Virus record (IMG/VR): IMGVR_UViG_3300037760_000179
Coordinates: 1-64,000 of that record
Direction: 5' to 3' (one strand)
Length of the DNA: 64,000 nt
Source of the DNA: a virus
Of the stretch, positions 1,071 to 62,148 are shown one piece after another. The notes below the pieces were generated by a model that made no database searches, was not told where the DNA came from, and worked only from the letters and a program-made list of their open reading frames with translations. The position numbers were made by a program, and so were the translations under genes. Each line of letters begins with the position of its first letter. The stretch's first letter is position 1.

Positions 1071-1124
1071 GTCTCGTTTCGCCCGGTTGTCTCGCTTGCC
1101 CCGTGCGTCTCAGTCAGTCAGAAT
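1071..1124 (+). promoter_or_regulatory. Divergent promoter region with three GTCTC repeats at 18-bp spacing
   Basis: GTCTC at 1071, 1089, 1107; -10-like CAGAAT at 1119-1124. Confidence 0.4.
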
Positions 1125-2214
1125 GGTCGGCGTGACTGACCCCCGACCGACCGACCGACCGACCACCCGACCGACCACGCCCGACCAACCGGTGGAACAC
1201 CCCGACCCGCAGTGGCTAGCGGTCGCCTTGCCGGTCGCCATCTGGACCCTCACCGTGGTCGTCACCTTCCTGGCCCTGTCCGGGCAGGTCGAGTTCGCCG
1301 AGTGGGCGGGTATCACCGACGGCCGTAAGTACCTCGTCCCGGCCGGGCTGGAGCTGGCCGCGGTCGGGTTCCTGCTGGTCGGCTACCGGCGCGCCCGCCG
1401 CGGTTACTCCCCGCTGGGCATGTGGGCGCTGGCCGGGCTGGTCGGGTCGTTCGCGGTCTGGACCAACGTGGTCCACGCGGGCGACCGCGCCGGCCCGGTC
1501 TTCGGCGCCTTCACGGTGGTCGCGCTGCTGCTGTGGTTCGTGAAGTTCCGTGACGACTACGCCGAGCACCAGCGCCGCACCGGGCAGGCCACCCCCCGGC
1601 GGCCCAAGTTCGGCTGGCGGATGTGGGCCTCCGCACCCCGGCTGACCTGGCGCGCCCGGCTGGTCGCGATCCGGCTCCAGCTCTCGGAGGTGCGGCTCGC
1701 CACGGTGTACGCCGAGCTGTGGCTGACCGTGTACGACGACGCGGCCGGCCAGCCGGGCAAGCTCCGCCGCCGCACCGCCTGGCGGACGGTGATGGTCGCC
1801 GCCTGCCACCCCGTGGCGGACCTACCGACCACGGTCGAGGTAGCCACCGTTGCGGTCGTCGACCGGCCGCCCCCGCCGGGCGCCGAGCCGGAGCCGACCG
1901 CGGTTGCCGACCGGGCCACCCCCGCCGGGCCGACCAAGCCGAGCCGACCACACCGCAGCCGGAAGGCGACCAAGGGCCGACCGCTGCGGATGGTGTGGTC
2001 GCCGACCGTGGTCGCCAACGCCCGCGCCCTACGGGACACCTTCGGCGACCGGCTGCCAACCGACCGGCAGGTACGCGACCAGATGGGCTGGTCCTACGAC
2101 CGCGCCCGGCCGGCGATCGAGGCGCACCGGGCGGGGGCCGACCGGGAACCGACCGACCGCGGAACGCCCGACCGGTCCGACGGCGACGACATGGAGAGTG
2201 AGGCGGCCGCATGA
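1123..2214 (+). CDS. DUF2637-family membrane protein with C-terminal HTH (Spd-like spread/transfer protein)
   Basis: Four TM segments, GITDGRKYLVPAGLELAAV, C-terminal LPTDRQVRDQMGWSYDRAR HTH-like segment; start could be GTG 1132. Confidence 0.7.
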   Translation: MVGVTDPRPTDRPTTRPTTPDQPVEHPDPQWLAVALPVAIWTLTVVVTFLALSGQVEFAEWAGITDGRKYLVPAGLELAAVGFLLVGYRRARRGYSPLGMWALAGLVGSFAVWTNVVHAGDRAGPVFGAFTVVALLLWFVKFRDDYAEHQRRTGQATPRRPKFGWRMWASAPRLTWRARLVAIRLQLSEVRLATVYAELWLTVYDDAAGQPGKLRRRTAWRTVMVAACHPVADLPTTVEVATVAVVDRPPPPGAEPEPTAVADRATPAGPTKPSRPHRSRKATKGRPLRMVWSPTVVANARALRDTFGDRLPTDRQVRDQMGWSYDRARPAIEAHRAGADREPTDRGTPDRSDGDDMESEAAA

Positions 2215-2330
2215 GGACGCAGCGAAAGTCGGTGGCGACCGGGCCGCGTGTTAGCCGGCTGATGGTGGTACTCGGCGCGGCGATGATGCTGGCCGGCGCG
2301 GTCGGGCACCTGATGGGGCGGTTCCTGTGA
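2211..2330 (+). CDS. 39-aa single-TM protein (not in ORF track)
   Basis: ATGA overlap with upstream stop and GTGA overlap with next gene; MRTQRKSVATGPRVSRLMVVLGAAMMLAGAVGHLMGRFL. Confidence 0.6.
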   Translation: MRTQRKSVATGPRVSRLMVVLGAAMMLAGAVGHLMGRFL

Positions 2331-2602
2331 CCGCCCCGGCTCCGCCCCGGCGGCGGGGGCGGCGGGCGCGGTGGGGCACGGCGGACGTGGCGATGCTGCT
2401 GGCCGCGGTGTTTGCGCTGGTGGGGGCGGGTGGGTTGCCACTGTCGCCCGGCTGGTTCTGGGCGTGGATGGCCGCGGCGGCGGGGCTGATGCTGGTCGGT
2501 GCCGCCGCAGCGGCCGGGGAGGGCGTATCGCGTGTGTCGCGGTCTCGCGTATCGCCGGTATCGCCCCGCCGGCCGGCGGGTTTCCGCAGGTCAAAGAGCT
2601 GA
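2327..2602 (+). CDS. Small membrane protein (Spd-like)
   Basis: Two hydrophobic segments, translationally coupled. Confidence 0.55.
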   Translation: MTAPAPPRRRGRRARWGTADVAMLLAAVFALVGAGGLPLSPGWFWAWMAAAAGLMLVGAAAAAGEGVSRVSRSRVSPVSPRRPAGFRRSKS

Positions 2603-2615
2603 CAGGGGGGTAGGT

Positions 2616-3899
2616 GTGGTGACGCGATACGGCGATGACGCGACACGGCGACCCGGGCGGCAGGCCCGGCCGGGGGCGTTGCCCGCGGGGATGGTGGTGC
2701 TGGGCGCGGCCAACGCGGTGGTGATCGCCGGGGCGACGGTGGCGCACCTGGCCGGGCTGGTCGGGCTGGCGGTGGCCACGGGCGGGACAGCGGCTGCCGG
2801 TGCGGCGGGGGCTGTGGCGCGGCGGCGGGTGCGTGGCCGGTGGCGGATGGTCAACGGCCGGCCGGTGCGCGTCGACGGCCCCCGCCGGCCCCAGCCGGGC
2901 CGGCCGACCGGGGCGGCGGGTTCGGGTGGTGCCCGGTCGGAGGGGCTGCCGCCTCGGTCCGGCGGGGCGGCCGGGCAGGTGCGTCGTGGGGCTCGGGCGG
3001 CGGGTGAGTGGCTGGGGCTGGTGGAGCCGCGGAAGTCTCCGCCGCCGGGTGCGCGGCAGGTGCCGCCGGCGCCCGGTGGCCGGGCGGGCGCGCCGGGCCA
3101 GGGCCAGGGTGCCGCGGTGCGTCCCCGGACTGCGCCCGCTACCGGACGGTCGGGCCGGGCTCGGCAACTGGTGGCGGGGGCGTGGCGTGCGTGGCAGCGC
3201 CGCGACGCGCCGGAACCGGCTCCGGCGCGGCCGGGACGCCGCCCGTCGCCACGTCCACGGCCCGGCGCACCCGGCCGACCCACCGGACCGACCGGCCCGC
3301 CGACCAACCCGGCCGGACCGGTGGGGGATGACCCGTCCCGGCGCCAGCCGGTCGACCAGCGGCCGGAGCGGCGCCCCGGCCAGACCACCGACCCCGAGCC
3401 CGAGCCCGCCGGAGAGCCGGACCTCGGCGGGAACCCGCCGGGCGCCCGACCGGATCCGGCCGACCAGCCGACACCCGAACCGACCACCACCCGGCCCACC
3501 GTGGCCGCACCAACTGGAGGAACCATGTCCCAGACGCCGATGCTGCAAGTGCAAGAGGCGGCCGACCAGATCGTGGCGATCCTGACCCGGTGGGAGCCGG
3601 AGGGGATGCTGGAGGTGCTGTACGCCTACCGGCACTGGCCGGACGCGCTGAACCGGCTGGTGGAGGCGTGGGCGATCCTGCACCGCAAGGCCACCAACGG
3701 GCTGGCCGGCTACCCGCTGCACCCCGCGGTCACCGACCTGATCGAGTCGGTGTCCCGACACCAGCGGCTGACCGCCACCGCCGCGGAGGAGATCGCCCCG
3801 ACCGCGCACGCGCTGCACCGGGAGCAGATCGAGGCGCTGGAGGATCCGCGGAAGGCGATGTGGGACCACCGCGCCAACCGGGACCGGTCGGTGGCATGA
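2616..3899 (+). CDS. TraA-like plasmid/AICE transfer protein (TM + Pro-rich linker + C-terminal helical domain)
   Basis: C-terminus AEEIAPTAHALHREQIEALEDPRKAMWD resembles actinomycete transfer proteins found upstream of traB; internal RBS GGAGG before ATG 3525. Confidence 0.55.
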   Translation: MVTRYGDDATRRPGRQARPGALPAGMVVLGAANAVVIAGATVAHLAGLVGLAVATGGTAAAGAAGAVARRRVRGRWRMVNGRPVRVDGPRRPQPGRPTGAAGSGGARSEGLPPRSGGAAGQVRRGARAAGEWLGLVEPRKSPPPGARQVPPAPGGRAGAPGQGQGAAVRPRTAPATGRSGRARQLVAGAWRAWQRRDAPEPAPARPGRRPSPRPRPGAPGRPTGPTGPPTNPAGPVGDDPSRRQPVDQRPERRPGQTTDPEPEPAGEPDLGGNPPGARPDPADQPTPEPTTTRPTVAAPTGGTMSQTPMLQVQEAADQIVAILTRWEPEGMLEVLYAYRHWPDALNRLVEAWAILHRKATNGLAGYPLHPAVTDLIESVSRHQRLTATAAEEIAPTAHALHREQIEALEDPRKAMWDHRANRDRSVA

Positions 3900-5959
3900 C
3901 CCGGCGGCTGGTGGTGGACTGGGGCGACTGGTCGTTCGGGCCGGGCAGGCACCCGGTGGTCGGTGCGGCGATGGCCGGCGGCATCGCCCTGGCGGTGACG
4001 ATGCTCGGGGCGCTGACCGGGCTGCTGGTGCCGTGGTGGCCCCTGCTGGCCGGGGCGGTGCTGGGCTGCGCCGCCGCGGTCACCGGGGCGTGGCAGGCCG
4101 CACCCGGGCAGGCGGTGGCCTACCGCGGGCTGTGCTGGCTGGCAGCCGGCGGCTGGTCGGCCGGGACGCTCGCGTTCGCCGACCCATGGTCGCGGTGGCC
4201 GCTGCTCACCCTGACCACCGGCGTGGCCCTGGCCGCGGTGGTCGGGTCCGGGTTGGCGTGGCTGGACCGGCGGGACCAGCCCGCCGCCGACGCGGCGGAC
4301 CAGCCGACCCCGGGGCTGGACAAGCTCGCCGCCCGGTGGGAGGCGAAGCTGCGGCAGATCACCCGCCGGCAGGTCAGCGTGCTGCGGCTGGACTGGTGGG
4401 AGCCGCGGACCGGGTTCAGCCTGGAGTGCCGGCTACCCGACGACGGCACCACCCTTGCCGATGTCAAGGCGTACGAGGCGCAGCTGGCCGCCGCGGCGAA
4501 CCTGCCACCGGGCTGCAACGTGGAGGTGCTGGCCGGCGGCGGCGGGCGGCGGGCGGTGCGGATCCGGGTGGCCACCGAGAACGCCATGGCGCAGGTGCTG
4601 CCGATCCCCGACGACACCGCCCCGCTGACGGTCTGCCGGCCGCTGCCGCTGGGGGTCCACGCCGACCGCACCCCCGGGTCGGTGGACCTGCGGTACGCCT
4701 GCGCCGTGCTGGTGGGGCAGACCGACTCCGGCAAGTCCAACACCCTCAACGTGATCACCCACCAGCTGGTCCGCTGCCCGGACGCGCTGGTGTGGGCGAT
4801 CGACCTGTCGGGCAACGGCCGCTACCCGCGGCCGTGGGTGCGGGCGTGGCGGGAGGGCGAGGCGGAGGCGCCGGCGATCGACTGGGCGGCGGTCACCGCC
4901 GAGGAGGCGCTGGCGATGTGCCGCGCCGCGGTGGCGGTCGTCAACGGGCGCACCGCCGCGTACGAGCAGCTGATGCACGAACGCAACGTCGACCTGATCC
5001 CGGTCGGGCCGGACCTGCCGGAGATCGTGATCGTCACCGACGAGTTCGCGGACCTGCCCGAGCAGGTCAAGGCGATGCTGGAGACGATCTCGAACACGGG
5101 CCGCGGCGCGGCCGTGCGGGAAGTCACGAGCGTGCTGCGGGCGACCGGGCAGTACATCTCCCGGGCGATGATCGTGCAGGCGCGGGAGCGGATCGCCATG
5201 CGCGTCAGCGACGAAGCCGAGTTGCAGTACCTGTTCGACCAGCAGTGGGGGCGTGGCCGGGTCGACCCGGCGTCCGTGCCCTACCAGGGGTCGGGGCTGA
5301 TCTCCACCGGCACCAGCCCGATCGCCCCGTTCAAGGCGTGGCGGGTCGACCCGGCCCGGATTCAGGCGGTGGCGGTAGCGGTGGCTGGGCGGCGCCCCGA
5401 CCTTGACCCGATCTCCGCGCAGCTCGCCGGCCCGGAGTACGCGGACCGGTGGGAGCGGACGCTGCCGCTGATGTTCCCCGGCGCGGACCCGCCGGCCAGG
5501 CCCGCCCGACCGGTGCCGGCCGCCGGCGGGGCGACGCTGACCCGACCGAAGGAGGAGACGGTGAACCTGGACGAGGCCGCAGACGACCTGCGGCGGGCGT
5601 TGAAGCAGGCCCGGCTGGCACGTGAGCAGGCCGAGGCCGGGCAGCCGGTGGCGTCGGTGGCCGACTGGTCCGTGGTGGAGGGGTGGCTGGCTGAGGCCAC
5701 CCCTGGCCAGGACCGGCCGCAGGTGCCGCCGCGGGTGCGGATGCGGGAGCTGGTCGAGCAGCACCGCCGTGACGGGATCGGCCCGCGGGCGGTGTGGCAG
5801 ACCCTGCGTGAGGAGGGGCACCCGACCGCCGAGCAGACGGTGATCACGTGGATGCGGCGGGACGCCGAGGCGGGAATCCTGGCCCAGCCCGGCGGCCGGG
5901 GCCAGCCGTACGTGCCGGGTCTGCGGTTCACGCTCCGGCAGGAGGACGAACCGTCATGA
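3896..5959 (+). CDS. traB: FtsK/SpoIIIE-type conjugative dsDNA translocase TraB
   Basis: N-terminal TM helices, Walker A GQTDSGKS, Walker B IVIVTDE, GRGAAVR motif, C-terminal winged-helix-like domain; ATGA-coupled start. Confidence 0.85.
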   Translation: MTRRLVVDWGDWSFGPGRHPVVGAAMAGGIALAVTMLGALTGLLVPWWPLLAGAVLGCAAAVTGAWQAAPGQAVAYRGLCWLAAGGWSAGTLAFADPWSRWPLLTLTTGVALAAVVGSGLAWLDRRDQPAADAADQPTPGLDKLAARWEAKLRQITRRQVSVLRLDWWEPRTGFSLECRLPDDGTTLADVKAYEAQLAAAANLPPGCNVEVLAGGGGRRAVRIRVATENAMAQVLPIPDDTAPLTVCRPLPLGVHADRTPGSVDLRYACAVLVGQTDSGKSNTLNVITHQLVRCPDALVWAIDLSGNGRYPRPWVRAWREGEAEAPAIDWAAVTAEEALAMCRAAVAVVNGRTAAYEQLMHERNVDLIPVGPDLPEIVIVTDEFADLPEQVKAMLETISNTGRGAAVREVTSVLRATGQYISRAMIVQARERIAMRVSDEAELQYLFDQQWGRGRVDPASVPYQGSGLISTGTSPIAPFKAWRVDPARIQAVAVAVAGRRPDLDPISAQLAGPEYADRWERTLPLMFPGADPPARPARPVPAAGGATLTRPKEETVNLDEAADDLRRALKQARLAREQAEAGQPVASVADWSVVEGWLAEATPGQDRPQVPPRVRMRELVEQHRRDGIGPRAVWQTLREEGHPTAEQTVITWMRRDAEAGILAQPGGRGQPYVPGLRFTLRQEDEPS

Positions 5960-44000: not shown

Positions 44001-47000
44001 TGTGGGCCTCGTCCATGAACAGGTAGTCGATGCCGGTGCTCTCGAACGTCAGCCCCGGGTCCCGGTCGGTGCTGCCGACCTGGTCCTTGATGCGCTGCTC
44101 GGCCTTCTCGACCTGCCCCTCAAGCTCCTTGACGGTCGGGTCGTTGTCCAGCGCCTCCCCTACCAGCTTCCGAAGCGCCTCGTCGCTGGCGCCTTCGTTG
44201 TCGGCGCGGACCCTCTCCACCACCTGGGCGCGGCGCCTGGCGGCCGACCGCCGCAGCGGCTCAACCTCCCCCGCCAGGTAGTCCCGCTCGGTCTCGCTGG
44301 ACACCGGAATCCGCTTGAACGCGCCCTGGGTGAGGATCACCGCGTCCCAGTCGCCGGTGGCTGCCTTGGCGACGATCTCGCGCCGCTTCTCGCCGCCCTT
44401 GTCGCCCTTCAGGTCGTCGGACCCGATCGCGAGCACACGCGCCTGCGGGTAGCGCTCCAGGAACTCGCTGGTCATCTGCTCCAGCATGTGGTTGGGCACG
44501 ACGATGGCGGGCTTGCGCACCAGACCCAACCGGCGCATCTCCATCGCACCGATGACCATGGTGGTGGTCTTGCCGGACCCGACCTCGTGCCACAGGCCAA
44601 CCGAGGGCTCGGCGATGATCCGCCGGACAGCCGCGCTGCGGTGCGGGAAGGCGTAGAAGCCGTCCCGGTTCAACCCTGGCAACTCCAGGTCCGAACCGTC
44701 GTACGAACGCAGCACCAACGAGTTGAACCGGCGGTTGTACGTGTCCTGAAGGTCCCTCTGCCGGGTGGGGTCTTCCCACAGCCACTCGGCGAAGCGGTCT
44801 GCCATCTCCTGGGCCTTCGCCTGCGCCTGCTCGGTCTTGTCCCGGTTGAGCTTGCCGTCCTCGGTGACCCGGATCGGCTTCTGCCCCAGGATGTCCTCGG
44901 CGATGTCGACGCCGGACATCTCCCGGATGCCCCACTCGGTGGTCGCGGCGGTGCTCCGCTTGCGGTCCGACCTGACCTTCCAGGCGTTCGCGTGCGGACG
45001 CTCAACGGTCAGCGTCGGGTCCCGCAGGATCTCCCGCAGGAACTGCTGCACGTACGCCGGTTCGATCCACCCGGCGCCCATCTTGGCGTTGATGTCAACC
45101 GGGGTCAGGTCCGGCGGCAGGACCCGCTCCAACGCCTCCACGTTCGGCGCGAACGCGTCCGGGTCCTCGGCCGCAGCCAGGCGGGCCACGTCGAGCTTCT
45201 GCCGCACGTTGCCTGACAGGTACTCGGCCGCCGGTGCGAGCCGGCCGCTACCTGGCTCGTCGAAGACCAACGTACCGAGACGGTCCCGGGCGGTCGGCTC
45301 GTCGACGTCGAGCAGGTCAGCGATGTGGGCCAGGTCGACCTCGCCGAGCTGGTCCACGGTGATCGCCAGCGCGTCTGCGGCGCTTTCCGCGCTGGTCCTG
45401 GGGGTGCGGGGGGCGATCGTGCGACGGTGGAAGATGTCGGTCTTGGTGGCGTTGCCCGTGAGCGGGTCGTAGTTCTCCAGGGCGCGCACCGCGGCCGAGA
45501 ACGGGTCGCTGCGGAATCCGCCCTGCGGTGGGCGGGTGCGGGTGACCCGCTGCTCCTCAACGTCGTCCTCGTCCTCGCCGCCCTTCGGGGCGCGCCGCTT
45601 CTCCGTGAAGCGGCTGACCGGCCCCCACTTGGCGACGTAGCCGTCGTAGATCTCGTTGAGGTCTTCGCGGAGCCGCTTCATCTGCTCGGTGTCGTCGCCG
45701 CTGGAAGCCTCGGCGTTGACCAGGTCGATGCTGGTGTCGCGCAGCCGCAACAGCTCCCGCAGCTCCTCCCGCTGTGTCGCGGGAACCTCGTGCGGCTGCT
45801 CCACCCCGCGGGTGACACGGCTGAAGGTGCCGTCCGGGAGGGCACGCAGGAACCCCTCGGGCACACGGTCCGGCCCGGTTTCGGCGAACGCGGGACGCGG
45901 GCGCTGCCCGGGGGTCTGGGTCAGCCCCATCGCCTGAGCCCGTGAGACGACCTTGTCCAGCGCCTCCCTCAGCGCCGGCCCAGCGTCCGCGTCGCCGCGA
46001 ACACCGAAGGCATCCTTTGGTCCGCTGCCCATGACCATCGTCCCGAGCACCATGTCGGGGTTGTCGAGGAAGTGCCCGTTGACCGACACTTCCCGGTCGT
46101 CGTCGCCGATGGTGATCTTCCGGGCAGCCTGGAACGGCAGCCCGGCATACGGCGTGTCGGGCTCGCGGCGGCGGAACACCAGCAGGTCGGTCACCACCGC
46201 CGTGCCGGCCGCCTTCTCGTGCGCCCGCGACGGCAGCCGCACCGCCCCGACGAGGTCAGCCAGTTCGGCCATTTCCTCCCGCGCGGCCGGGCTCATCGAG
46301 TCCATCGTGTACCGGGAGGTGATGAACGCCCCGATCCCGCCCGGGCGGGTCATCCGCAGCGACTTGAGGATGAAGTGGTTGTGCATGTTGTGACGGCGGC
46401 CCGGGTTGTACTCCGGGTCAACCAGCTTGGTGTCGGAGAACGGCACGTTGCCGATGGCGGCATCGAAGGCACCGTCGCGCGTCTTGGTGTCAGTGAACGA
46501 CTCTGCCCGCACGTCCGCGTTCGGGTACAGGGCGGCCGCGATCGAGGCGGTGATCGGGTCCAGTTCCACCCCGGTCACGTGGGTGTCGGGTGCGACGTCC
46601 TCCGGCACCATCCCCATGAACGTGCCCGACCCGCTGCCCGGCTCCAGCACCTCGCCGCCGTGGAAACCGAGGCCTCGCACGGCGTCCCAAATCGCGGCGA
46701 CGTAGTCCGCGTCGGTGTAGTGCCCGGTGCGGGTCGTTCGCCGCGCCGCCGCGAACTCCTCCGGCGTGAGCAGGTCCTTCAGCTCGGCCTGCGCGTCGGC
46801 GAACCTGCCACGCGGGGGTGGCTCCTTGAACACGTTGGGCAGCGAACCCCACCCGGACCAGCGGGCCAGTTTCGCCTGGTCCTCAGCCGACGCCGGCCGG
46901 CCGGATTCTTGCAGGTCCCGCAGGGTCCGCAGCGCCACAAGGTTGGCGTCCAGCCGCTTGGTCGCCGTGTTCGGCGCGAGGTCGGCCTGACTGCGCGGGC

Positions 47001-53064: not shown

Positions 53065-53724
53065 TCAGGCGGCGAGCCCCCCCGCGATCGCCCGCAGATG
53101 CCGCACCACCACGTCCGGGGCGCGCTGCTGCTGCTCCGGCGTCAACGCCAGATCGGCCAGAATCCGGCGGATCACATCCGACAACAACGCGCCCTGCTCC
53201 TCAGCAAGGCGGACCTTCCGCTCCTCGATGCCGGCCGCGATCGCCGCCTTGACCACGGCGAGCAGGTGTTTCCGCTCCTCCTGCCACAGCCGTATCCAGG
53301 CGTGCGCGGTCGCCGAGTAGGTGGTGTCGGTACCCGGGAACTCGCCAGAGTCGCGGGCCACTTCCTCGGTGCGTCCCCAGATCACCTCGTCGGGGGTCAG
53401 CGCCTGGACCTGCTTGTGCAGCCAGTCCACGGCCCCGGCGGTGCGGTACACCTCCTCCAGGAGGGCGTCGCGGGGGTCGATCTCACGGGGGAGGCCGAAG
53501 GTCTTCACCGCCGCGGCGGCCTGCGCCTTGGCGGCATGCTTGTTGTGATTCTCGGTGTTGCCCCCGTGGAGCTTGCAACAGCCGACGCCGCGATGCGCGG
53601 TACCCCAGCCGGCCGGGCGTTCACAGGGCTCGCCGGTGCCGCCACGCTTCTTGTCCCGCTTCGGCGCGCCACAGAACGGACTGTCATGACCTTGACTGGA
53701 AGGTGTGTCTGTCAAGACCTTCAC
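53065..53724 (-). CDS. Terminase small subunit (HGG-motif type)
   Basis: CGA...C..PAGWGT.H.G.G.CKLHGG; directly upstream of terL. Confidence 0.75.
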   Translation of the reverse strand: MKVLTDTPSSQGHDSPFCGAPKRDKKRGGTGEPCERPAGWGTAHRGVGCCKLHGGNTENHNKHAAKAQAAAAVKTFGLPREIDPRDALLEEVYRTAGAVDWLHKQVQALTPDEVIWGRTEEVARDSGEFPGTDTTYSATAHAWIRLWQEERKHLLAVVKAAIAAGIEERKVRLAEEQGALLSDVIRRILADLALTPEQQQRAPDVVVRHLRAIAGGLAA

Positions 53725-56613: not shown

Positions 56614-57933
56614 TCAGGTCAGCGTGTCGGCGGGACGCCGGTAGGTCGGCCGCAGCAGCTCCCGCACCTGTTCGGGGGACCGCAGCGACGCCTCGTAGAC
56701 ACCCTGCCGTTTCGCCCATTCCGTGTAGTCCCCAGCGGTGAGGATCTTCCCGCACGATTGGCACTCCACATCCCCGGTGCCGTCGTTGCGCCGGTACAGC
56801 AGCCGCTTGTCGCACCGGTTGCACTCCACCCCCACGCACAGCTCCGGCGGCGGGTCGAACTCGTCCAACACGCCCATGAGCGTGCCCCGCAGCCGTTGCA
56901 GGGTGATGCGGAACTCGTCGATCGGGCCGTAGCGTTCCCTGGCCCAGGGCAGCCGGTTGGTCAGCCACCGGCCCAGCTCCGGCACGGTGGGCACCGGCAG
57001 CCGGCCGGAGCCCGGGGCGCCCGCGTCGGCCCAGGCCCGCACCTCCTGGTCCAGGACCGCGGCAACCGGGACGTGACCCACCTGGTCGTCGGCGGAAACC
57101 CACACCACCCCGCCCAGCACGGTACGCACGAACGGCGGCTCGAACGGCGGGTTGCGGGGCAGGTGCGCGATCAGGTCGGCCACCTCGGCCGGGGTCGGGG
57201 CGCGACCGGCCGCGGGCACCGGCTGGCGCTGCCGGACCGCGAACGTGCGGACCTGCTCCACCAGCTCCTCGCCGATGATCCAGTTGGTTTCCTGGTCGCG
57301 GACCGGCACCATCCGCAGCTCCCGCAGGGTGTGCTCCGCTGGTTCGCCAGCGGCAAGCTTCGGCACCTTCTCACCCGACACCGAATCCAACGGCTGCCCG
57401 TCCGGGCCACGTACCACCGGGCCGAGCAGGTCCAGCACGTCCAGCCTGACCGGGGCGGGGGAGCCGGTGCGGCTACGTGACACCCTCGGGTCCTTGCGGC
57501 GGCCCGGCGTAAGGCCGGCGCCGCCGACCGCCGACAGCGGATCCGCCCGGCGCCACTCGCCTTCCGGCGGCAGCCACTCCCGCGTCTGCGGGTCACGGCG
57601 GCGGGGGTGCCAGTGCCAGTACCACCGGTCGTCCGCCTCCCAGTGCTCCGGCAGGATCAGCTCCGGCAGCTCGGCGGTCTTGTCCGGGATCGAGGCGACC
57701 AGGATCGGCAGCCACCGCTCACACGGTCCGCACACCCGGCCGTCGCCCTTGGACGGGTCGGGGTTTCGGCTCCAGCAGCACGGGCAGGAGCCGCGGGTGC
57801 GCCGCTGCCGACCGCAGCCCTCCGAGCCGCAGCCGCCGGGCACGCTACAGGCGACGAAGGGACCCGAGTGGCAATCGCACCGGGCCGGGCAAGCGGTCGC
57901 TGAGCTGGTGGCGGTGGTGGCGGTTGGCGGCAT
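56614..57933 (-). CDS. Multi-Zn-finger phage protein (possible late-gene regulator)
   Basis: N-terminal CxxC pairs, C-terminal CNRC...CQSC; position before packaging genes. Confidence 0.6.
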   Translation of the reverse strand: MPPTATTATSSATACPARCDCHSGPFVACSVPGGCGSEGCGRQRRTRGSCPCCWSRNPDPSKGDGRVCGPCERWLPILVASIPDKTAELPELILPEHWEADDRWYWHWHPRRRDPQTREWLPPEGEWRRADPLSAVGGAGLTPGRRKDPRVSRSRTGSPAPVRLDVLDLLGPVVRGPDGQPLDSVSGEKVPKLAAGEPAEHTLRELRMVPVRDQETNWIIGEELVEQVRTFAVRQRQPVPAAGRAPTPAEVADLIAHLPRNPPFEPPFVRTVLGGVVWVSADDQVGHVPVAAVLDQEVRAWADAGAPGSGRLPVPTVPELGRWLTNRLPWARERYGPIDEFRITLQRLRGTLMGVLDEFDPPPELCVGVECNRCDKRLLYRRNDGTGDVECQSCGKILTAGDYTEWAKRQGVYEASLRSPEQVRELLRPTYRRPADTLT

Positions 57934-60458: not shown

Positions 60459-60816
60459 CGTCGCCGCCCTCGGCCGGTCGAAGGTCCGCCAACGGGCAGC
60501 CGAACTGGCCCCCACCGAGGTCCACCATCGCCCACCCGTCGTCGTCGATCGACACGATCGGACCGGGCTCGGCGTAGAGCCGGACAGCCGACCCGTAGCC
60601 AGGATGGCCCGGCTTGAGTCGGTTCGGCACGAACACCAGCGACCCGACGGCCAGGGTCTCCACGGCCCGGCGGGCGATGCCGTCGGCGGCACGCAGCTCG
60701 GTCTCGTTGGCGCGTCCCTGCCGGCGCAGCTTGTCCGGGTCGGCGGTGCCGTACCGGTCGATCAGGGTCTCGCGGGCAAGCTCGAACGCGTCCTTCTTGC
60801 GGGTCTGTTCAGGCAT
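60448..60816 (-). CDS. Hypothetical protein
   Basis: RBS GGAGG; SH3-like C-terminus. Confidence 0.5.
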   Translation of the reverse strand: MPEQTRKKDAFELARETLIDRYGTADPDKLRRQGRANETELRAADGIARRAVETLAVGSLVFVPNRLKPGHPGYGSAVRLYAEPGPIVSIDDDGWAMVDLGGGQFGCPLADLRPAEGGDDAA

Positions 60817-61924
60817 GGCTCCCATCCTCCCGTACTCGAGCGCCCGCTTCCGCCACCGCAGCGGCTACCAGATAGGCCGGATCGGTATCCAAGGTCAGCT
60901 TCGCCCGGTCGTAGCCCTGCGTGGTGCGTGGGTCCTTGTGACCCAGGGCGTGCTGGCGGGCTTCGAGGGAAGCGCCGGCAACTCGGGCGGTGGTGGCCCA
61001 GGCGTGGCGGAACGAGTGCGGGGTGATCTTCGCCGCTGAGGGTATGCCGGCCGCTCGAGCGGCGCGGCGGACGAACCGGTACACGGCGTGCCGGTCCAGC
61101 GGCCGGCCACTCGAGTCGACGAACAGCGGCGCGGCCGGGTCGTCCCGGCCGGGGCGGGCCTCGAGCATGGCGTCGATCGCGGCCACCGCGGCCGGGGGGA
61201 GGGGGCGGGTGCGTCTCCGGCCGCCCTTCATCCGCTCGAGCCGCAGCACCCGGTGACCGTCGGCGTAGCCCAGGTCCTCGAGGCGGGCCAGGCACAGCTC
61301 CGTCACTCGAGCGCCGAGGGCCACCATGGTCTCGGCCAGGGCGGTCGCGCACAGCGGGCCGAGCGGCTCGTCCGCTCGAGCAGCAGCAACGATCGCGGCG
61401 GCTTCGGCTGCGGAGAACCCGACGGTGGTGGTGTCGTCGCGGTCCACCCTCGGCCGGTCGGCACCGCCGACCGGGTTGGTGGCGACGGCCTCGAGGCGGA
61501 CCAGGAAGGTGTACCAGCTCGAGACGGACGACAGCCGCCGGGCCACGGTGCTGGGGGAGAGCCCGGCAGCCTCGATGTTGCGGGCGAACTTGTTGACGTG
61601 GGTGAATCTTGCTTCGAGCGGACGCAGCCCGGTCGACTCGCACCACGTCAGGTAGCCCTCGAGGTCACGCCGGTACGCGAGGCGGGTCAGTTCCGACAGG
61701 CGGCGGTTCGCCAGCCATCGGTCGGTGAACTCGAGCAGCTCCGGGATGGTTGCCAGGACGCCGGGCGGTGCGATGCGCTCGGGGTCTGCTCCCCCATCCA
61801 ACCCCGAGAACGCATATGCGTCATTATGCGCTAGATCATCTTGGGTGGAGGGGAGTACCTCGTCGGGCTCGAGGACGACAGGATACTGACCGTTATCCTG
61901 CACTTGATCTAGCCGGACGGTCAC
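60809..61924 (-). CDS. XerC/D-like tyrosine recombinase (start uncertain)
   Basis: SAM-like domain (TRLAYRRDL, STVARRLSSV..WY); catalytic R (GARVTEL), K (KGG), HxxR (PHSFRH), LGH, Y (TTQGY). Confidence 0.92.
   Translation of the reverse strand: MTVRLDQVQDNGQYPVVLEPDEVLPSTQDDLAHNDAYAFSGLDGGADPERIAPPGVLATIPELLEFTDRWLANRRLSELTRLAYRRDLEGYLTWCESTGLRPLEARFTHVNKFARNIEAAGLSPSTVARRLSSVSSWYTFLVRLEAVATNPVGGADRPRVDRDDTTTVGFSAAEAAAIVAAARADEPLGPLCATALAETMVALGARVTELCLARLEDLGYADGHRVLRLERMKGGRRRTRPLPPAAVAAIDAMLEARPGRDDPAAPLFVDSSGRPLDRHAVYRFVRRAARAAGIPSAAKITPHSFRHAWATTARVAGASLEARQHALGHKDPRTTQGYDRAKLTLDTDPAYLVAAAVAEAGARVREDGSHA
61807..61903. promoter_or_regulatory. Two dif-like 11-6-11 recombinase sites
   Basis: CTAGCGCATAA-TGACGC-ATATGCGTTCT (minus strand, 61834-61807) and CGACAGGATAC-TGACCG-TTATCCTGCAC (61876-61903). 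Confidence 0.55.
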
Positions 61925-62148
61925 GACGGCCTCGCATCCATCCGGTCCGAAGCCTCCACGAACACGTCGCACGGCCACGGCAGATTGCACCGCACACACC
62001 ACGGCATCACGCCGCCCGGCCACTCGGCGATGTCGTCCGTCGGTACCGGCTCGGCTCCGTGCGCGTCCATCACCGCCGAGTCGGCTCGGCCAGCGATCAG
62101 GTCGGGCAGGTCCCGCAGGAACGCCCACAGATCACGCAGCAGGTTCAT
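61921..62148 (-). CDS. Hypothetical protein (CxxC..WPC)
   Basis: WCVRCNLPWPC. Confidence 0.5.
   Translation of the reverse strand: MNLLRDLWAFLRDLPDLIAGRADSAVMDAHGAEPVPTDDIAEWPGGVMPWCVRCNLPWPCDVFVEASDRMDARPS

Follow-up and report, generated by a model that had tools for sequence, protein, structure and literature searches.

An island of CTCGAG palindromes in the recombinase gene of an actinomycete phage genome that otherwise lacks the word

The subject of this paper is an array of the palindrome CTCGAG, a XhoI-type word, that lies inside the gene of a XerD-like tyrosine recombinase in a viral genome. The stretch that we analysed (hereafter the window) comprises positions 1 to 64,000 of the IMG/VR record IMGVR_UViG_3300037760_000179. 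This record is a single contig of 93,707 bp with 72% G+C and an estimated completeness of 99%, and it belongs to a tailed phage of actinomycetes. The coordinates of the array and of the other features that we discuss are collected in Table 1.

The recombinase gene and the distribution of CTCGAG

The recombinase matches the Pfam families Phage_integrase (PF00589, E = 2.2e-24) and Phage_int_SAM_1 (PF02899, E = 2.1e-12), and it has the full set of features of the XerC/XerD-like enzymes: a catalytic domain and an N-terminal SAM-like core-binding domain, boxes I and II, the later histidine and the tyrosine nucleophile. The catalytic residues, as read from the translation, are intact (ALGARVTEL in box I; HSFRH, LGH and QGY in box II), and the codon of the box I arginine itself lies within a CTCGAG site. 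The start is probably the GTG at 61927, the public gene call being a TTG at 61801, and the stop is the TGA at 60809-60811. Because the N-terminal extension is kept as protein in relatives, the outermost site, at 61868, is coding. When the site codons and the first 45 codons, which are AT-rich, are left aside, the G+C content at third codon positions (GC3) of the gene is 0.876, which is typical for the genome; hence the gene is compositionally native and not imported. The recombinase may serve lysogeny or multimer resolution.

Table 1. Coordinates of the array and of other features of the phage genome (numbering of the record, whose first 64,000 positions are the window)
Feature	Position	Strand	Basis or remark
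CTCGAG array	60835..61873		starts 60835, 61054, 61110, 61160, 61235, 61277, 61306, 61375, 61490, 61518, 61658, 61730, 61868
XerD-like tyrosine recombinase gene	60809..61927	-	Pfam and catalytic boxes; holds all 13 CTCGAG
Unused context, Leu-Glu as CTCGAA	61613..61618	-	one mismatch from CTCGAG
Unused context, Leu-Glu as CTCGAA	60962..60967	-	CTCGAG there in relatives L002 and L035
Unused context, Ala-Arg-Val as GCC CGA GTT (CCCGAG)	60982..60987	-	one mismatch; rare CGA codon
Paired-Cys gene, no Pfam family	56614..57933	-	between recombinase and small terminase gene
Small-terminase-like gene	53065..53724	-	homology and gene order
Eco57I/TaqI-type adenine methyltransferase domain	46297..46650	-	in portal-fused giant protein
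HerA/DUF87/TrwB-like ATPase gene	69576-71852		C-terminal winged-helix domains
C5 DNA methyltransferase gene	85922-87175 (L057:10922-12175)		outside window
N4/N6 DNA methyltransferase gene	91468-92520 (L057:16468-17520)		outside window; adjoins ECF sigma factor gene

The number of CTCGAG copies in the window is by itself unremarkable (13, as against 21 +/- 5 in shuffled sequences). The anomaly is their distribution. An exact search places all 13 in the recombinase gene, and the complete 93.7-kb genome contains no others, where Markov and base-composition models predict 27-31 copies. An earlier note on this DNA had picked out these copies by eye and had noticed no others in the window, and its estimate of about 0.3 copies per kb is close to the ~0.33 per kb that we compute; in the gene there is one copy per 86 bp. 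The same note had allowed for the word being dense genome-wide, which is not so: the whole-genome scan finds 0 copies in the 92.6 kb outside the recombinase gene. Of the 2,080 classes of hexamers, none is nearly as clustered in this genome as CTCGAG.

Other type II words are nearly absent from the genome as well. CTGCAG occurs 0 times, AGGCCT once, and GAGCTC and GGGCCC three times each, where base composition predicts ~31 each for CTGCAG, AGGCCT and GAGCTC and ~206 for GGGCCC; none of the remaining copies is inside the island. Outside the recombinase gene the genome indeed shows restriction-site avoidance, and for CTCGAG this gene is the sole exception. Beyond the hexamer itself the 13 copies have no flanking consensus, and their spacing varies from 28 to 219 bp with no significant period.

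Selection on the word and the history of the allele

It is strongly supported that selection acts on the DNA word CTCGAG, and not on codons or on the protein. The 13 sites fall in three reading frames, as the earlier note had described: seven are Leu-Glu (CTC GAG), four are Ala-Arg-x (GCT CGA G..) and two are x-Ser-Ser (..C TCG AGy). Among the synonymous contexts able to spell the word, 13 of 18 are used in the recombinase gene, as against 0 of 427 in the 80 other genes (23,661 residues; Fisher p = 2e-21), and three of the five contexts left unused are one mismatch away from CTCGAG. When synonymous codons are shuffled within the gene, the mean is 3.0 sites, and a count of 13 is reached in 0 of 500 shuffles. 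The four Ala-Arg pairs are written with GCT and CGA, rare codons with 7% and 5% usage. The tRNA of the phage is a tRNA-Met, unrelated to GCT and CGA, and a phage tRNA is ruled out as the explanation of these codons. In the 95 Leu-Glu pairs outside the recombinase, CTGGAG is used 68 times and CTGGAA nine times, while CTCGAG, expected 14.3 times from codon usage, is used 0 times. Ten of these pairs contain the rare Leu codon CTT (3.7% usage) and read CTTGAG, one transition from CTCGAG; they are a footprint of the purge.

The protein has paid for the array. Leu-Glu makes up 2.7% of the dipeptides in the recombinase and 0.40% elsewhere. For eight of the sites, a compatible amino-acid context is present in no more than 12% of 114 outgroup homologs (in one example, a glycine has been replaced with glutamate in a conserved Leu-Gly), and two further sites are within terminal extensions found in this clade alone. 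The protein has therefore been altered to carry CTCGAG. The array is under positive selection up to the limit that the protein allows, with sites gained and lost. The opinion of the earlier note, that it is the DNA and not the codons on which selection acts, is borne out by the rare GCT-CGA pairs, by the near-saturated contexts, by the site-creating replacements and by the recurrence of the array in a relative.

This relative is the IMG/VR contig G001 (30.9 kb). Its recombinase allele has 79.7% DNA identity to that of the window (dS 0.56, dN/dS 0.27) and contains eight CTCGAG, with one more in the other 30 kb. Seven sites are common to both alleles, six are found in the window only and one in G001 only. 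The two phages are otherwise distant: their large and small terminase proteins (TerL and TerS) are 36% and 58% identical, as against 74-81% for the recombinase. Both have the gene order recombinase, unknown gene, terS, terL, but the immediate flanks of the recombinase gene are unrelated. The allele therefore moves between phages. Among the relatives represented by protein sequence only, P0003, P0004, P0005 and P0007 have 7-10 Leu-Glu pairs, whereas 110 other homologs average 2.6, and these Leu-Glu-rich alleles form one clade with the window protein and P0006 (100/100 support). P0006, nested in this clade, has three Leu-Glu pairs, which suggests a secondary loss. Outside the clade, P0019 has 12 such pairs, partly at new positions and with no close relative, and P0083 has seven; judging from the protein sequences, these two may be independent cases.

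The checks named in the earlier note do not refute its idea: the word is not dense genome-wide, and the close homologs share the island. Homologs of 70% identity or less have 0-2 CTCGAG and no island, and these include the genes of Nonomuraea mangrovi, of Micromonospora and of two near-complete related phages. The latter also purge CTCGAG, with three copies found and 29 expected. Cultured phages yielded no relatives in a DNA search and 38% identity at best in a protein search. The search of plasmid DNA returned just one Micromonospora gene, 66% identical and with no site inside, and a DNA pattern for the conserved Ala-Ala-Arg-Ala site matched the known relative alone. As to the purge, the ~500 one-mismatch neighbours of CTCGAG outside the island have formed no site over dS 0.56, where a rough neutral estimate predicts ~15 new ones; the purge is therefore still active.

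A third DNA sequence adds a second word. The metagenome fragment L035 (Ga0299914_10044987) is 96% identical over the last 56 residues of the recombinase, and it has two CTCGAG within the final 170 bp of the gene, while the next 3.5 kb have none. Across three genes that lie downstream of the recombinase (1969-3501), it carries 12 GAGCTC within 1.5 kb and none elsewhere in the 3.75-kb contig. Ten of these are Glu-Leu (GAG CTC) and one is the rare codon pair CGA GCT. The first of the genes concerned has seven sites, where synonymous shuffling gives 2.0, and 0 of 1,000 shuffles reach seven. In its homolog in the window, all seven Glu-Leu pairs are spelled GAGCTG, and GAGCTC is likewise a word purged from the window's genome. 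The phenomenon is therefore not confined to one word or strictly to one gene.

What might read the island

The gene between the recombinase and the small terminase gene belongs to a family whose consensus (homologs P0183-P0197) has paired-Cys motifs near both ends, which could be read as zinc-ribbon-like. This family is present in all three island-bearing contigs (G000, which is the present genome, G001 and L035) and in neither of two island-free relatives (G002 and G003). In L035, the GAGCTC island lies in the homolog of this gene. For the 439-residue protein, the predicted structure is poor (pLDDT 54) and too weak for a structure search. The island is upstream of the small-terminase-like gene, by 7.1 kb here and by 1.65 kb in G001. 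Elsewhere the phage encodes a Mu-type portal that is part of a fusion protein of 2,962 residues together with methyltransferase and SNF2 helicase domains, and a Mu gpI-type protease joined to a topoisomerase IB and a 2H phosphoesterase in one protein. Further genes encode a capsid protein, an amidase, Lsr2, an ECF sigma factor, RusA and a HerA/FtsK-like ATPase; the open reading frame at 3590-5959 has no Pfam match. The Mu-type head genes suggest headful packaging, and the 93,707-bp record has no end repeats.

Three DNA methyltransferases are encoded by the phage (Table 1). Homologs of the C5 and N4/N6 enzymes are absent from the two near-complete island-free relatives; the third domain was not searched there. 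On the side of the host, XhoI-family nucleases are present in 20 of 301 sampled genomes from the order of the nearest cellular homolog, as against 0 of 14 controls; restriction by the host is therefore enough to account for the purge. A bare hexamer without phasing is typical of type II restriction-modification enzymes and unlike the sites of recombinases, iterons or centromeres. Since only the hexamer is shared and no phasing is seen, the array points to a reader of the restriction-modification type and not to the recombinase.

The array itself, the selection for it in the DNA, its retention in relatives and the ongoing purge outside it are shown by the data above; who this reader is, and what follows from the reading, we infer as follows. 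The island may be a cis element read by a restriction-modification-type enzyme and gated by methylation or by cleavage. We put this explanation forward tentatively, as one that is possible and could well prove wrong. An array of the XhoI-type word has been positively selected within the native recombinase gene of a phage otherwise free of the word. The reader would have a strict six-base palindromic specificity; it would be a methyltransferase, an endonuclease or a derivative of these, encoded by the phage or by the host, and would not be the recombinase. The state of the 13 close sites (unmethylated, hemimethylated, fully methylated or cut) would gate a DNA transaction at the locus, perhaps recombinase production, perhaps a step of replication or packaging. 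Elsewhere the word would be excluded because it is cut by XhoI-type enzymes of the hosts; a further reason might be that the reader would go astray at scattered copies. Of the roles listed in the earlier note, it is the XhoI-type sensor or decoy that fits best, given that CTCGAG is purged elsewhere together with other type II sites and that XhoI-family nucleases occur in the candidate host order; the reader that such a role presupposes was not found.

Several points weigh against this explanation. If the phage methylates CTCGAG itself, the purge elsewhere seems unnecessary, and if host enzymes alone read the word, 13 exposed sites make the purge pointless unless cuts are prevented or tolerated. 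This paradox would alternatively be eased if the purge also keeps the island unique. No specificity emerged for any of the three methyltransferases from sequence searches of solved structures, nor did we find a methyltransferase or nuclease specific for CTCGAG; there is no XhoI-family nuclease gene in the phage genome, and the 31 kb available from G001 contain no C5 or N4/N6 methyltransferase. The sites common to both alleles (7 of 10 where the residues are conserved) are no better kept than synonymous positions, of which 72% have identical codons. Known clusters of methylation sites are compact (about 150-250 bp) and are found at an origin, a packaging site or a promoter, while the island spans 1,040 bp of coding sequence and lies 1.65-7.1 kb from the small terminase gene. 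Finally, 49 loci around related small-terminase genes contain no other palindrome island. As a general trait of DNA upstream of the terminase, the island is indeed ruled out, since palindromes cluster there no more than other words do.

A different answer to the same paradox is that the island is a sacrificial or tolerated target. Host XhoI-type endonucleases would be meant to cut the recombinase gene, which is dispensable for lytic growth if it serves lysogeny or multimer resolution. In one variant the compatible TCGA ends would be resealed, or the island would act as a switch or decoy, the recombinase gene being destroyed in a foreign host while the site-free rest of the genome is immune. 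A total purge elsewhere makes sense only if cuts in the island are harmless or useful, and a near-saturating density would reflect the need for maximal fragmentation of one gene. The abundance of XhoI-family enzymes in the candidate host order agrees with this, as does the island of L035, which covers neighbouring genes whose function is possibly related to recombination, including one weak, sub-threshold match of the MerR/HTH_17 kind. But a genome free of sites would be at least as fit, and selection for more sites is left unexplained. Resealing after several cuts would amount to a heritable deletion of the gene, and a benefit of that kind could not maintain the island; nor can 13 sites titrate an enzyme with turnover. 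There is also no sign that the island is on terminal, redundant or first-entering DNA, with end repeats absent and headful packaging suggested. In our opinion this explanation is rather unlikely, if deserving of serious attention.

The island could also be a binding array for a phage protein unrelated to restriction, such as a platform for loading or packaging, a site of partition or a locus for transfer of the FtsK/HerA type, with the purge keeping the platform unique. Cis sites within coding DNA have a precedent in the hexamers of P1 pac inside pacA (PMC10028697). The phage has a HerA/FtsK-like ATPase with winged-helix domains, the paired-Cys family co-occurs with the islands (3 of 3 as against 0 of 2), and in both genomes (G000 and G001) the island is upstream of the terminase genes. 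However, the distance to the small terminase gene is not constant, and the 49 related terminase neighbourhoods without islands count here too. A bare six-base palindrome with no flank preference and with irregular spacing is unlike known arrays. Such a binding array would further require a coincidence, namely that CTCGAG and GAGCTC are classic type II sites like four other purged words. We regard it as unlikely.

Some more specific forms of site find no support. A partition centromere or an iteron array is rejected for its irregular spacing, which has no period, and no partition gene is seen beside the island; the centromere-like or topological-filter role proposed in the earlier note is for the same reason unsupported. 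Sites of the dif, lox or att type, with arms of about 11-13 bp and a spacer of 6-8 bp, are rejected since the 13 copies share no flanking bases and since island-free members of the family exist. This speaks equally against the suggestion that the copies are binding sites of the recombinase itself: family members of 70% identity or less do without the island. The earlier note had in addition placed dif-like sites beside the array. At the first of them (61807-61834) the DNA codes for a peptide, H-N-x-x-Y-A, that all members of the clade conserve. It does contain a perfect 12-bp palindrome, ACGCATATGCGT, which is not kept in the relative L002, and a role as a recombination site is therefore doubtful.

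That the recombinase allele came from a genome hyper-rich in CTCGAG throughout, and was passed to phages that have yet to purge it, is improbable. The allele does move, as the recombinase identity of 74-81% between G000 and G001 illustrates (36-58% for other proteins), and word-dense genes are known from other viral contigs, such as the sliding-clamp gene with 18 sites described below. Yet the relatives are all of actinomycetes or actinophages along a smooth gradient of identity, and the nearest cellular homologs (Nonomuraea, 70%, and Micromonospora) have a normal density of CTCGAG. The GC3 is native, and the word is missing from the flanks in each of the three known contexts. Alleles separated by dS 0.56 still have 13 and 8 sites while the purge is active, and the GAGCTC island would demand a second donor.

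We give hardly any credence to selection on RNA or translation, by which self-complementary CUCGAG would give the mRNA a structure or translation would be held back by rare GCU-CGA codons: the fold of the native mRNA is slightly more stable than those of its synonymous shuffles, but the score is weak (z = -1.7); CGA and GCT are used ~2-3 times as much as in other genes, but most sites are made of GAG, a common codon for Glu, and CTC, which is in moderate use for Leu (18% of Leu codons elsewhere); the sole feature common to the three reading frames is the DNA hexamer; and the purge of the same word from both strands elsewhere finds no account. A drive by VSP-type repair is rejected as well, since it could make single transitions only and since CTTGAG and CTCAAG are not depleted. 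The probability that remains beyond our preferred explanation and these four alternatives goes to something not yet considered.

Known systems, other word-dense stretches and significance

The purge itself is of a familiar kind. Double-stranded DNA phages avoid restriction sites (palindromes), and the part of the survey of Rusinov et al. 2018 that we draw on reports under-representation and no local islands (PMC6286503). As in this published avoidance, CTCGAG, CTGCAG, AGGCCT, GAGCTC and GGGCCC are eliminated or nearly so outside the recombinase gene, with the CTT codons as footprints. Unlike in it, to the extent of that part, one of the purged words has accumulated ~40-fold in one gene of the same genome. 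We found no description of such restriction-site islands in the literature, where surveys, as far as the cited part goes, describe avoidance (PMC6286503).

The closest published analogue is P1 pac, in which seven TGATCA/G hexamers lie within 161 bp inside pacA, at a defined cleavage site and next to IHF sites (PMC10028697). In the model for P1, pac is bound while it is hemimethylated and becomes open to cleavage once fully methylated (PMC10028697). The likeness is that of a short palindromic methylase-type word repeated inside the coding sequence of a large phage. P1 also has a methylase of its own and a methylase-helicase protein that is delivered from the capsid, and its tyrosine recombinase gene is a few kb away from pac. 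Clusters of Dam sites (GATC) gate DNA transactions in a similar way at oriC and in the IS10 transposase gene. To our knowledge, P1 has not purged GATC outside pac. The present case differs in that 13 sites extend over 1,040 bp of the coding sequence of a recombinase, in that the rest of the genome lacks the word, and in that any cognate methylase or cleavage point is putative. A second comparison is with HIP1, GCGATCGC, of cyanobacteria. Like HIP1, CTCGAG is a short palindrome at very high density that overrides the choice of codons and of amino acids and is kept within a clade. HIP1 is, however, abundant genome-wide, while CTCGAG is confined to one gene of a genome that excludes it, so that the HIP-type trait is found here only in part.

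A broad pattern scan of IMG/VR returned other CTCGAG-dense stretches, mostly in contigs that are CTCGAG-rich overall, which is a different situation. In L197 (IMGVR_UViG_3300036851_000804), an unrelated viral contig of 70% G+C, 25 CTCGAG are found within 1.3 kb (4089-5416), 18 of them in a gene for the DNA polymerase III beta subunit (sliding clamp), and the rest of the locus has ~1.3 per kb. This gene could be derived from a CTCGAG-rich host, or it could be another island. At L150:68-4214 there are 44 CTCGAG in 4.2 kb, followed by three in 10 kb. At L176:2547-3226 there are 14 in 680 bp, many of them ~24 bp apart, and this stretch resembles a coding tandem repeat. With another word, L025 (Ga0209069_10013079) contains 21 GGTACC (KpnI-type) in 2.9 kb (1108-3961) and none in its first 1.1 kb; the stretch begins at the start of a recombinase gene of 54% identity and continues through the next gene. 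In L022, L031 and L015, GGTACC occurs at ~1.5 per kb throughout. Lastly, at 1710-3343 of L113 (IMGVR_UViG_3300036780_000081), ~2.5-4 kb upstream of a related small terminase gene, the overlapping, non-palindromic hexamers GGGTAC, CGTACC, CCGTAC and CGGGTA occur 9-12 times each within ~1 kb, which suggests an array of one longer motif, of about nine bases by our guess.

A broader proposal covers the two words of the present lineages. Some phages might build restriction-site islands deliberately, purging a word from all but one gene near the packaging module (here the recombinase gene), so that a type II restriction-modification system of the host cuts or methylates the island and decides the fate of the module. 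Such a switch, genetic or epigenetic and coupled to restriction, would let a phage read its host of origin or of entry, and the word would change between lineages, as from CTCGAG to GAGCTC. In this general form we think the idea rather doubtful.

The island nevertheless deserves attention for several reasons. All 13 sites can be recoded synonymously, and the idea is therefore directly testable. Gene-level word statistics can expose cis elements that are hidden in coding DNA, and the island could serve as a compact model, easy to work with, of highly iterated palindromes, which lack an explanation. A site that is lost genome-wide and yet accumulated in one gene, at a cost to the protein, indicates that words of the restriction type can also be useful signals to a phage. 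The reader, once found, could reveal a new use that phages make of restriction-modification enzymes, their own or those of the host, for sensing, for timing or for controlled cutting.

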